Positions 8,123-13,131 of a stretch of DNA of 64,000 bases are shown piece by piece. This DNA is from Escherichia coli (GTDB taxonomy: Bacteria; Pseudomonadota; Gammaproteobacteria; Enterobacterales; Enterobacteriaceae), in assembly GCF_003334335.1 (NCBI RefSeq), contig NZ_QOWQ01000017.1, one strand, 5' to 3'. The notes under the pieces were generated by a model that ran no database searches, had not been told where the DNA came from, and saw nothing but the letters and a program-made list of their open reading frames with translations. Position numbers and translations under genes: made by a program. Positions within the stretch are counted from its first letter, which is position 1. Every line of letters starts with the position of its first letter.

Positions 8123-8796
8123 CAAACGTTCTGATTGTTGAAGATGAACAGGCTATTCGTCGCTTTCTGCGCACGGCGCTGGAGGGCGACGGGATGCGCG
8201 TCTTTGAGGCCGAAACGCTGCAACGCGGCTTGCTGGAAGCGGCAACCCGTAAGCCAGATTTGATTATTCTCGATCTCGGCCTGCCCGATGGTGATGGGAT
8301 TGAGTTTATCCGCGACCTGCGCCAGTGGAGCGCGGTGCCGGTGATTGTGCTTTCCGCACGCAGCGAAGAGAGCGACAAAATCGCCGCGCTGGATGCCGGA
8401 GCGGATGATTATCTGAGTAAGCCGTTTGGCATTGGCGAATTGCAGGCCCGTCTGCGCGTCGCATTACGCCGCCACTCTGCCACCACCGCGCCCGATCCGC
8501 TGGTAAAATTTTCCGATGTTACCGTCGATTTAGCCGCCCGCGTGATTCACCGGGGTGAGGAAGAGGTGCATCTCACACCAATTGAGTTCCGCCTGCTGGC
8601 GGTGCTGCTCAACAATGCCGGAAAAGTACTCACCCAGCGCCAGCTCCTTAACCAGGTGTGGGGGCCAAACGCGGTCGAACACAGTCACTATTTGCGTATT
8701 TATATGGGACATCTGCGACAAAAACTGGAACAGGATCCCGCCCGCCCACGCCATTTCATTACTGAAACCGGTATTGGCTATCGGTTTATGCTTTGA
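8119..8796 (+). CDS. kdpE: Response regulator KdpE (OmpR family)
   Basis: GTG start overlapping the kdpD stop (GTGA); [17 protein letters not shown]..., 225 aa. Confidence 0.93.
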   Translation: MTNVLIVEDEQAIRRFLRTALEGDGMRVFEAETLQRGLLEAATRKPDLIILDLGLPDGDGIEFIRDLRQWSAVPVIVLSARSEESDKIAALDAGADDYLSKPFGIGELQARLRVALRRHSATTAPDPLVKFSDVTVDLAARVIHRGEEEVHLTPIEFRLLAVLLNNAGKVLTQRQLLNQVWGPNAVEHSHYLRIYMGHLRQKLEQDPARPRHFITETGIGYRFML

Positions 8797-8832
8797 ATAT
8801 TAATTTTAATACAGCCTGCCTTTTATTAATTA

Positions 8833-8859
8833 AAGCCGTAATAATAAATACGGCTTTTT
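8833..8859 (+). terminator. Intrinsic terminator after kdpE
   Basis: agccgta-ataataaa-tacggct followed by a T run. Confidence 0.5.
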
Positions 8860-9029
8860 ATCTTAAACAACACACAAAAATAACAATTCAATATTTTATA
8901 TTACTGAGTAAAAAGCTCATCATTAAATAAATTAAGATTGATCATTTTTTATTGATCACCTTCACAGTTCAACCGTATTTCCTGGATAGAATATCTTCAC
9001 CTTCATTCACATCAGGAAAGGTAAATTAA

Positions 9030-9134
9030 ATGGAAAATAACAGCCGCACTATGCCCCATATAAGGCGGACAACTCATATTATGAAGTTTGCTCATCGCAA
9101 TAGCTTCGACTTTCACTTCTTCAATGCCCGTTAG
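9030..9134 (+). CDS. speFL: Leader arrest peptide SpeFL (34 aa) upstream of speF
   Basis: ATG at 9030 preceded by aggaaagg; translates MENNSRTMPHIRRTTHIMKFAHRNSFDFHFFNAR then TAG; not in ORF track because it is short. Confidence 0.8.
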   Translation: MENNSRTMPHIRRTTHIMKFAHRNSFDFHFFNAR

Positions 9135-9391
9135 TCTACCGACTAAGGGCACTTCAGCGTACAGGTCTTCCTGACTCTCTGTATTACAGGCATATGCCTG
9201 TATTCCGCAGTGCTCATTCTCTGTTAACCCTTGTATTATCAGCCACCTGACTGGTAAGGGTTTCTGCATTCTGAAAAAAGCAATCTACCTGATTTATTTA
9301 TCAGCGGGGTAACTTTGCTTTTTTCCGGCACGATCGATTTCTCATTCGAGAAATTGAGGACCTGCTATTACCTAAAATAAAGAGATGAAAA

Positions 9392-11590: not shown

Positions 11591-12906
11591 GTCAGGCTAA
11601 ATCGAACAAAATGGGCGTCGTTCAGTTAACCATACTGACGATGGTCAACATGATGGGCTCCGGTATCATCATGCTGCCGACAAAGCTTGCCGAAGTCGGG
11701 ACAATCTCAATTATCTCCTGGCTGGTGACAGCCGTAGGCTCAATGGCACTGGCATGGGCATTCGCAAAATGCGGTATGTTCAGCCGTAAATCAGGCGGTA
11801 TGGGCGGTTATGCCGAGTATGCTTTCGGTAAATCCGGTAACTTTATGGCGAACTATACCTACGGCGTCTCACTGCTGATTGCTAACGTCGCGATTGCTAT
11901 TTCGGCGGTTGGTTACGGCACCGAACTGCTCGGCGCGAGTTTGTCGCCAGTGCAGATTGGTCTTGCGACCATCGGGGTGCTGTGGATTTGTACCGTGGCT
12001 AACTTTGGTGGTGCGCGCATTACCGGGCAAATCAGTAGCATTACCGTGTGGGGGGTCATTATTCCGGTCGTCGGTCTGTGCATTATTGGCTGGTTCTGGT
12101 TTAGCCCGACGCTGTACGTTGATTCCTGGAATCCGCATCATGCACCGTTCTTCAGTGCGGTAGGTTCTTCCATCGCTATGACGCTGTGGGCTTTTCTTGG
12201 TCTGGAGTCTGCGTGTGCGAATACTGATGTAGTGGAAAACCCGGAACGTAATGTGCCAATCGCGGTACTCGGCGGTACGTTAGGTGCGGCGGTGATTTAT
12301 ATCGTCTCCACCAACGTGATTGCCGGGATTGTGCCAAATATGGAGCTGGCAAATTCAACGGCACCATTTGGTCTGGCCTTCGCGCAGATGTTCACGCCGG
12401 AAGTGGGTAAAGTCATTATGGCGCTGATGGTGATGTCCTGCTGCGGTTCGCTACTTGGCTGGCAGTTCACCATTGCCCAGGTGTTTAAATCTTCATCTGA
12501 TGAAGGCTACTTCCCTAAAATTTTCTCCCGTGTAACCAAAGTGGATGCACCGGTGCAGGGAATGTTGACCATTGTGATTATTCAGAGTGGATTGGCACTG
12601 ATGACCATTAGCCCGTCGCTAAACAGTCAGTTCAACGTGCTGGTTAACCTGGCCGTGGTGACCAATATCATTCCGTATATTCTGTCAATGGCGGCATTAG
12701 TCATTATTCAGAAGGTCGCTAATGTGCCCCCCTCAAAAGCGAAAGTTGCAAACTTTGTTGCTTTTGTTGGCGCGATGTATAGCTTTTATGCGCTGTACTC
12801 ATCCGGGGAAGAAGCCATGCTGTACGGTTCCATCGTGACCTTCCTTGGTTGGACACTGTATGGTCTGGTATCACCACGCTTTGAACTGAAAAATAAACAC
12901 GGTTAA
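11587..12906 (+). CDS. potE: Putrescine-ornithine antiporter
   Basis: 439-aa APC-family transporter; ATG overlaps the speF stop (ATGA). Confidence 0.95.
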   Translation: MSQAKSNKMGVVQLTILTMVNMMGSGIIMLPTKLAEVGTISIISWLVTAVGSMALAWAFAKCGMFSRKSGGMGGYAEYAFGKSGNFMANYTYGVSLLIANVAIAISAVGYGTELLGASLSPVQIGLATIGVLWICTVANFGGARITGQISSITVWGVIIPVVGLCIIGWFWFSPTLYVDSWNPHHAPFFSAVGSSIAMTLWAFLGLESACANTDVVENPERNVPIAVLGGTLGAAVIYIVSTNVIAGIVPNMELANSTAPFGLAFAQMFTPEVGKVIMALMVMSCCGSLLGWQFTIAQVFKSSSDEGYFPKIFSRVTKVDAPVQGMLTIVIIQSGLALMTISPSLNSQFNVLVNLAVVTNIIPYILSMAALVIIQKVANVPPSKAKVANFVAFVGAMYSFYALYSSGEEAMLYGSIVTFLGWTLYGLVSPRFELKNKHG

Positions 12907-12923
12907 TAAAACAAAGTAAAAAA

Positions 12924-12950
12924 GGGCGATTGAATGATCGCCCTTTCTGT
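12924..12950 (+). terminator. Intrinsic terminator after potE
   Basis: gggcgat-tgaatg-atcgccc hairpin followed by a T-rich stretch. Confidence 0.6.
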
Positions 12951-13001
12951 TTGTTGGCAAATAGTTCGTTATTTATGCCGCATCCGGCAGATGTAGGGTC
13001 T

Positions 13002-13131
13002 AAACGCGATCGAACACAGCAACTATTTGCGTAATTATATGGGGCATCTGCGACAAAAACTGGAACAGGATCCGGCCCGGCCTCGCCATTTTATTACTGA
13101 AACCGGTATTGGGTATCGGTTTATGCTTTGA
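13002..13131 (+). pseudogene. Remnant of a kdpE 3' end (last ~43 codons plus stop), about 92 percent identical to kdpE 8667-8796
   Basis: Direct alignment of the two segments in this window: 10 mismatches over 130 bp, 7 synonymous in the kdpE frame; no start codon or upstream kdpE body. Confidence 0.75.

Follow-up and report, generated by a model that had tools for sequence, protein, structure and literature searches.

Why does the end of kdpE, a response-regulator gene, occur twice in the same orientation in the Escherichia coli chromosome, once in the intact gene and once 4.3 kb downstream, beyond the speFL-speF-potE module? The locus is found in E. coli contig NZ_QOWQ01000017.1 (assembly GCF_003334335.1), and positions given here are coordinates in the 64,000-nt stretch of this contig that was analyzed (the window). 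The second copy, termed kdpE′, is probably a dead 3′ piece of an Escherichia kdpE allele that marks the seam between two alternative cargoes, joined in series, of a slot flanked by kdpE and pgm. As a gene remnant left at a recombination junction of a hypervariable slot, it represents no new kind of element or mechanism.

A repeat search of positions 7000–15000 shows a single long direct repeat, 8653–8797 versus 12988–13132 (145 nt, 90% identity). A first-pass annotation of the stretch had described a 130-bp repeat with 10 mismatches, 7 of them synonymous, and with frame and stop kept; this was correct in every particular. Base-by-base comparison of the 130-bp core, 8667–8796 with 13002–13131, shows mismatches at 10 of the 130 positions (8674, 8685, 8686, 8699, 8709, 8739, 8745, 8748, 8757 and 8778). 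In the kdpE frame 7 of these are synonymous and 3 are non-synonymous (V to I, H to N and I to N), and the downstream copy preserves the frame and the stop codon across the core. The Nei-Gojobori method, applied to the 43 codons of the core (fragment versus resident kdpE), gives 0.041 non-synonymous substitutions per site (dN) and 0.29 synonymous substitutions per site (dS), i.e. a dN/dS of 0.14. The longest identical block between the two copies is 29 bp. Weaker homology reaches 14 bp further 5′ than the core, back to 8653/12988, and in these 14 bp the fragment shows an in-frame change of TGG to TAG at 12994–12996. Thus the fragment cannot be translated as a continuation of any open reading frame. 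The sequence is that of a gene remnant: it matches the C-terminus of KdpE over 48 codons, lacks the N-terminal 177 codons and carries the TAG in frame. The Prokaryotic Genome Annotation Pipeline (PGAP) lists 12997–13131, in K-12 and in other RefSeq genomes, as a pseudogene ([quoted passage not shown]) and does not name kdpE as its source. This winged helix-turn-helix (wHTH) pseudogene can be renamed kdpE′.

The fragment has an identity of 88%–91% to E. coli kdpE alleles, 85% to E. albertii and ≤83% to other genera. A donor from a foreign genus was considered and is ruled out, as the Escherichia alleles are the best matches. In a sample of 5,426 complete E. coli genomes the best kdpE shows 91.4% identity to the fragment, among the matches listed. 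Functional alleles of the 145-bp tail in E. coli and other Escherichia have 3–20 differences among themselves, and the fragment has about 15 differences from each E. coli allele. All 7 synonymous fragment states occur in functional Escherichia kdpE alleles. The allele of strain E69 has 7 of the 7, and 8739G and 8745G are found only there among the functional alleles compared. The proposal in the first-pass annotation that the synonymous divergence is allelic and does not come from local decay is therefore borne out, by the presence of all 7 states in functional alleles and by the absence of a listed E. coli kdpE above 91.4%. That annotation had named two outcomes that would speak against it; as found here, the two tails are not equally similar to one kdpE allele, and the fragment is not carried by every Enterobacterales genome. 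The three non-synonymous changes and the TAG are the decay component.

A second fragment allele, in strain JBEHAAB-19-0176, displays the same junction between a repetitive extragenic palindrome (REP) and kdpE′. It has 5 private changes in common with the K-12 fragment, including the TAG, H to N and I to N. The common junction and the 5 private changes suggest that the fragment arose once, from a functional allele unlike the resident K-12 kdpE, and then decayed. The two fragments differ at 12 of 145 positions, the JBEHAAB-19-0176 copy has a 1-bp deletion (a frameshift), and over the 145 bp one allele has 3 private changes and the other 6, which is in excess of the adjacent spacer. Four clustered sites (8739, 8745, 8748 and 8757, in 8739–8757 versus 13074–13092) separate the two. 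The JBEHAAB-19-0176 fragment matches its own resident kdpE at 8739, 8748 and 8757, and its 1-bp deletion is at 8745. These sites may be a short gene-conversion tract between the fragment and resident kdpE.

The surroundings of the fragment are K-12-like, with 3 differences from the MG1655 RefSeq record across 14.4 kb (13463 and 13580 in ybfG, and 10607 in speF). The order of this arrangement (type 1) is kdpE; speFL-speF-potE; T′, x and REP′; kdpE′; d, ybfG and ybfP; x′, a bacterial interspersed mosaic element (BIME) and T; and pgm. The features are as follows.

8119–8796, plus strand: kdpE, intact response-regulator gene, 225 aa, GTG start (open reading frame list; RefSeq annotation of the near-identical K-12 locus)
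8653–8797, plus strand: R1, the 3′-terminal 145 bp of kdpE, stop codon included (repeat search, base-by-base comparison)
8832–8859, plus strand: kdpE terminator hairpin, which opens the K-12-type ("alpha") kdpE-speFL intergenic region (terminator scan)
9030–9134, plus strand: speFL leader peptide, MENNSRTMPHIRRTTHIMKFAHRNSFDFHFFNAR (open reading frame, annotation, allele comparison)
9392–11590, plus strand: speF, inducible ornithine decarboxylase (open reading frame, annotation)
11587–12906, plus strand: potE, putrescine-ornithine antiporter (open reading frame, annotation)
12918–12946, no strand assigned: T′, bidirectional terminator hairpin, a diverged copy of the pgm terminator with loop TGAATG (repeat search, terminator scan, cross-locus comparison)
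12947–12976, plus strand: x, 30-nt stretch homologous to x′ at 14461–14490 (sequence comparison)
12977–12990, no strand assigned: partial REP palindrome, GCCGCATCCGGCAG, abutting the fragment, the join point (sequence comparison)
12988–13131, plus strand: kdpE′, pseudogene fragment R1′, last 48 codons of a kdpE allele, TAG at 12994–12996 (repeat search; PGAP pseudogene 12997–13131)
13132–13254, plus strand: d, 123-bp AT-rich spacer from the kdpE′ stop to ybfG, with promoter-like hexamers (sequence scan)
13255–13905, plus strand: ybfG, DUF2625, 216 aa (annotation, open reading frame)
13946–14440, minus strand: ybfP, orphan lipoprotein, 164 aa (annotation, protein search)
14461–14490, plus strand: x′, partner of x, directly upstream of ybfP on the opposite strand (sequence comparison)
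14491–14588, no strand assigned: BIME, two inverted REP elements at 14491–14524 and 14560–14588 (sequence comparison)
14610–14640, no strand assigned: T, resident pgm bidirectional terminator, partner of T′ (repeat search, cross-locus comparison)
14654–16294, minus strand: pgm, conserved right-hand anchor of the variable slot (annotation, cross-locus comparison)

The open reading frame list and the annotation agree with the first-pass annotation that speFL, speF and potE are the only genes between the repeats; the interval also has the kdpE terminator, the terminator copy T′, the stretch x and the partial REP. Three flank elements (the kdpE tail, x and the terminator) are doubled in the same order, and the cargo between them differs. 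With the starts of the adjoining REPs included, x and x′ agree at 34 of 44 positions. The CAG at the join of REP and kdpE′ is a possible microhomology to kdpE. ybfG is an intact 216-codon open reading frame in the window; the MG1655 copy has an internal stop and is a pseudogene according to PGAP.

With which cargo does the fragment travel? A BLAST search of the junction region was carried out over the 5,426 genomes. The fragment in the context potE-T′-x-kdpE′-ybfG is present in 1,827 (34%), and these are type 1, as in K-12; ybfG-ybfP is found in 1,846 and speF in 5,091. The fragment is thus confined to ybfG-ybfP carriers (1,827 versus 1,846 genomes), which indicates that it travels with ybfG-ybfP and not with speF-potE. 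It forms the left edge of a 1,692-bp segment that sets type 1 apart from type 2, and this segment is flanked by a 31-bp terminator repeat, T′ at 12918–12946 and T at 14610–14640. Type 2, about 60% of E. coli, has speFL-speF-potE as sole cargo. In its representatives LF82 and strain 123, potE is followed by pgm after 56 bp, with one terminator (T) and without the fragment, ybfG or ybfP. Type 3 is kdpE-BIME-ybfP-x′-BIME-T-pgm, without speF-potE, ybfG or the fragment (loci L091, L093 and L098); its frequency, an estimate from identity classes, is ~5% or 200–300 genomes. The textbook K-12 order kdpE-speFL-speF-potE-ybfG-ybfP-pgm is therefore one haplotype among three or more that are common in E. 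coli.

A KdpE-centred scan with one genome per species yielded 80 Enterobacterales loci. In 70 of them pgm is present, always downstream of and convergent with kdpE. Forty-four of these 70 are without speF, mostly with a short spacer and a few with unrelated multi-kb inserts. speF is found directly after kdpE in 31 of the 80, mostly followed by potE, and 26 of the 31 include pgm. The repeat does not accompany speF-potE in general: a second kdpE tail is absent from all 31 species loci with speF, and ~3,260 complete E. coli genomes carry speF-potE without the fragment. kdpE lies directly next to pgm in Serratia, Yersinia, Pantoea, Dickeya, many Citrobacter and two cassette-less Escherichia, the last being species representatives that display kdpE-BIME-T-pgm. 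The pgm terminator is lineage-specific and is identical with or without speF-potE (Citrobacter, Enterobacter), and in E. albertii the T′-type is the only pgm terminator. Thus T and T′ appear to be two Escherichia pgm-terminator alleles. Judged from these loci, kdpE and pgm appear to be convergent neighbours across the Enterobacterales that share one bidirectional terminator, with the gap between them as a variable slot. In E. coli and the 80 species loci the slot is empty or has speF-potE, ybfP, speF-potE together with ybfG-ybfP, or larger unrelated inserts.

A separate duplication is seen in Escherichia sp. MOD1-EC7003 (L008:9670–10065). It has the order kdpE-BIME-T-kdpE′-BIME-T-pgm with a 62-bp kdpE tail, and the junction is GACCGCCC joined to CCGCCATTT. 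This tail copy is independent of the K-12 one, so that the kdpE end has been duplicated at least two times in the genus and such joins recur here.

K-12 type 1 looks like a composite of the other two slot haplotypes. The parents would have been a kdpE-(ybfG)-ybfP-x′-BIME-T-pgm chromosome and a kdpE-speFL-speF-potE-T′-x-REP chromosome. One crossover would have been homologous and located in the common flank. The other would have been illegitimate, linking the REP that closely follows potE to a kdpE position 145 bp short of the stop; through this join the kdpE tail would have stayed ahead of ybfG and the flank elements would have been doubled. The founding event may have been a single and old one, perhaps in an Escherichia lineage other than E. 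coli. The block would later have spread by ordinary homologous recombination, such that the fragment now stands beside an unrelated kdpE allele; this spread would account for the synonymous-biased 8%–10% divergence. The join is supported by the ancestral kdpE-pgm adjacency, by the polymorphism of the slot and by the presence of a matching single-copy haplotype for each repeat pair. For T′/T this is type 2 (potE-T-pgm), for x/x′ it is potE-T′-x-BIME-T-pgm (E69, R32_14_1F and N96), and for kdpE/kdpE′ it is found in strains CUWW10 and GF4-3.

The region around the slot is strongly mosaic. From the kdpE stop into the 5′ end of speF, K-12 and LF82 are 15%–31% divergent, and in the 3′ end of speF and potE they are 1%–3% divergent. 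The divergent segment, 8797–10000 (the intergenic region, all of speFL and ~600 nt at the start of speF), separates the K-12 type from the LF82/O157 type to the same extent. Its kdpE-speFL intergenic region in the K-12 type is closer to that of Citrobacter, at 81% identity, than to that of other E. coli, at 74%. SpeFL residues 5 and 7 differ as well (MENNSRT versus MENNNRL), and the K-12 form matches that of C. amalonaticus. Haplotypes 1a and 1b are near-identical in the segment from the kdpE stop to the 5′ end of speF and are 8% apart in the fragment. On the other side of the kdpE stop, kdpD-kdpE (5396–8796) displays 2%–7% strain divergence in 200-bp windows with abrupt changes. Such divergence is well above the typical core-genome level, and the mosaic appears to extend well upstream of the slot. 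Because the region is this mosaic in sliding-window comparisons, the direction of the founding event cannot be read from it.

Several points weigh against the composite origin. The haplotype counts come from BLAST coverage classes and not from a genome-by-genome parse. The near-identity of 1a and 1b in the left segment, set against their 8% difference in the fragment, indicates that the histories of the segments are decoupled. In the 80 species loci and the protein searches no deep lineage was found that has a functional kdpE with a fragment-like tail directly before ybfG, and CUWW10 and GF4-3, the only two genomes with kdpE next to ybfG, look like recent deletions. Outside E. coli neither ybfG nor ybfP has a close homologue, which makes the proposed parent hypothetical. 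x and x′ (34 of 44) are more diverged than the kdpE pair, and a single event does not cleanly explain this. Lastly, which partner was the recipient and which the donor cannot be told from the sequence.

The search for a donor gave the following. A species with kdpE-ybfG-ybfP was not found in the 80 species loci or in protein searches with YbfG and YbfP, and neither ybfG nor ybfP is present in any of the 80 loci. Relatives of YbfG outside E. coli have ≤57% identity, and ybfP gave 27 database matches, essentially all from E. coli. Within E. coli, ybfP alleles go down to 87% nucleotide and 66% amino acid identity; the flanking pgm is at 97%–99%. Two apparent YbfG orthologues with 75%–86% identity (P0005 and P0006) were rejected, as they are the K-12 sequence with pervasive C to T and other transitions, consistent with bisulfite-type or error-ridden reads. 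The Logan contigs of these false homologues (L086–L088) are from SRR27475578, SRR27475714 and SRR9087304. YbfP matches of 70%–81% (P0134 and P0141) were likewise rejected, being type 1 loci on frameshift-ridden assemblies. A metagenome scan for the junction of REP and kdpE′ yielded one K-12-like contig.

Can the module leave the slot by way of the repeat? A synthetic query consisting of the kdpE body, the fragment and the sequence downstream of it was run against the 5,426 genomes, and two of them, CUWW10 and GF4-3, show a contiguous match. Both are annotated as kdpD-kdpE-DUF2625-ybfP-pgm, with one repeat copy and without speFL-speF-potE, as expected from the claim in the first-pass annotation that the cassette can leave. 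They align to the window as 2400–8797 and 12988–19399, and the overlap is the 145-bp repeat. The deletion removes exactly the 4,335 bp between the copies, and an intact kdpE is fused to the ybfG upstream region. The kdpE tail of CUWW10 shows the resident state at all diagnostic sites, which places the crossover in the last identical block (8779–8797). CUWW10 has 0 differences from K-12 in 2,762 bp upstream (kdpD-kdpE), where E. coli strains differ by 2%–6%; its ybfG-ybfP has an identity of 99.6% to K-12 and 99.6%–99.7% to type-1a strains, and the downstream sequence has 99.6%–99.9% to the latter. The complete identity to K-12 upstream suggests that CUWW10 is a recent deletion derivative and not a relic of the state before insertion. 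GF4-3, in which the crossover lies after 8757, differs in allelic background; the collection contains no close relative, and GF4-3 is consistent with nesting within the repeat-bearing lineage. The two repeat copies still act as a substrate for recombination: in CUWW10 and GF4-3 one hybrid copy is left and the intervening DNA is gone. This is a clean natural case of a recombination scar with its deletion product found in the wild.

Arrival is a separate matter. The cassette had been proposed in the first-pass annotation to arrive by a single crossover in kdpE. The repeat geometry stands. The mode and direction of arrival cannot be read from the sequence, as identical products would come from a Campbell-type integration and from an illegitimate join on one side. 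In the Campbell-type alternative, which is considered unlikely, a circle with the 145-bp kdpE tail and speFL-speF-potE-T′-x would have integrated by a crossover into the kdpE 3′ end of a kdpE-ybfG-ybfP-pgm chromosome, and excision would reverse this. Direct repeats do bracket exactly the module, and CUWW10 and GF4-3 have the single-copy "empty site", with a crossover at the very 3′ limit of the homologous stretch that mirrors integration there. The K-12-type kdpE-speFL intergenic region and the 5′ end of speF are also foreign-looking, as seen in the 81% and 74% identities given above. However, the circle itself needs the illegitimate join between REP and the point 145 bp before the kdpE stop, and so there is no saving over a one-sided join. 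CUWW10 lies within K-12-type diversity, with its 0 differences in 2,762 bp, and is a derivative and not an ancestor. No integrase or circle-forming function is present between the repeats, and speF-potE occupies the same slot without repeats in the 31 species loci and ~3,260 E. coli genomes. The foreign left segment, being near-identical in 1a and 1b while their fragments are 8% apart, would have arrived after the repeat.

A tandem duplication that began 145 bp upstream of the kdpE stop and ended at the REP beyond x′, followed by replacement of one cargo copy by speF-potE through horizontal transfer, appears quite improbable. It would explain in one step why the kdpE tail and x are doubled in the same order, and the MOD1-EC7003 locus is an independent example of such a duplication (kdpE tail, BIME and T). 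Against this, a second event is needed that swaps the cargo precisely from the kdpE stop to x, T′ must come in separately, and no genome was seen with two copies of the same cargo. The diverged kdpE tails, T′/T and x/x′ might also be viewed as built-in handles to drop, regain and swap speF-potE and ybfG-ybfP, i.e. a low-frequency selectable cargo switch in place of a passive scar; this is a speculative proposal that is given very little weight.

Is kdpE′ itself of use to the cell? An Rfam search with the fragment gave no match, a promoter and terminator scan gave no signal above shuffles, and no function is indicated for it by its sequence. That it acts under selection as a short peptide from the wHTH tail, as a decoy of KdpE or as a promoter or other regulatory element of ybfG, as its frame and stop kept over 43 codons, its dN/dS of 0.14 versus the resident gene and a weak promoter-like site overlapping its end (13128–13157) could suggest, is hardly credible, given the in-frame TAG near its 5′ end, no start codon or ribosome-binding context, the frameshift in the JBEHAAB-19-0176 allele, private changes (3 and 6 in 145 bp) in excess of the adjacent spacer, a divergence older than inactivation that explains the low dN/dS, and its absence from two thirds of E. 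coli.

The composite origin has features in common with several known systems. Homology-facilitated illegitimate recombination combines one homologous anchor with one illegitimate join during uptake of foreign DNA. Like it, the composite origin would place a foreign segment beside a common flank, with a near-homology-free junction (here between REP and kdpE, possibly at CAG) and, as such events allow, a truncated donor neighbour gene. The K-12 locus departs from it in that the truncated piece repeats a gene of which an intact copy stands 4.3 kb upstream. Campbell-type integration and excision share with this locus the direct repeats of homology that bracket the insert and the return to one copy by recombination (CUWW10 and GF4-3). 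They differ in that here there is no circle-forming or other element-encoded function, the repeats are 8%–10% diverged and the single-copy CUWW10 is a recent derivative.

Integrase islands at tRNA and tmRNA attachment (att) sites also have a gene 3′ end repeated beyond the accessory segment, with the intact gene still functional. Here, in contrast, the target is a protein-coding gene and the cargo consists of ordinary metabolic accessory genes. No integrase or recombinase is encoded: the genes between the repeats are speFL, speF and potE, and beyond them are ybfG (DUF2625) and ybfP (lipoprotein). In place of a short identical att core, the repeats are 130–145 bp and 90%–92% identical.

REP and BIME sequences are join points of chromosomal duplications. 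In agreement with this, the join lies within a REP palindrome and the locus is rich in REP/BIME copies; unlike a REP/BIME-joined tandem duplication, of which L008 is the true example, the cargo differs (speF-potE versus ybfG-ybfP). The O-antigen locus between galF and gnd is a slot flanked by core genes that is exchanged by flanking homologous recombination. The kdpE-pgm slot resembles such slots in its alternative cargoes between two conserved genes and in the strong mosaic of diverged alleles in and near it. It differs in being small, with two or three cargoes, and in that K-12 concatenates two. No description of the fragment or of the three-haplotype slot was found in the literature, in a body of papers that leaves out most subscription journals.

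About 6% of complete E. coli genomes lack the speF-potE module, and there are at least three routes to this state: another haplotype of the slot, deletion through the repeat and deletion mediated by the insertion sequence IS1. This is relevant to strain comparisons of polyamine and acid-stress phenotypes. IS1-mediated deletions of the module with varied end points are seen, from sequence or annotation, in KL53, ET846 and 2017-01-4CC; those of MB10 and HS are judged from feature lists alone. KL53 and ET846 had been considered as further kdpE-ybfG fusions and were rejected, since their IS1-mediated deletions have different end points. The repeat-mediated route is real and is not the main one, IS1 deletions being at least as frequent. 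IS1 is present in or next to 13132–13300 (spacer d and the 5′ end of ybfG) in many unrelated strains, including one MG1655 stock, and in 2017-01-4CC the deletion adjacent to IS1 spans kdpD′ to potE.

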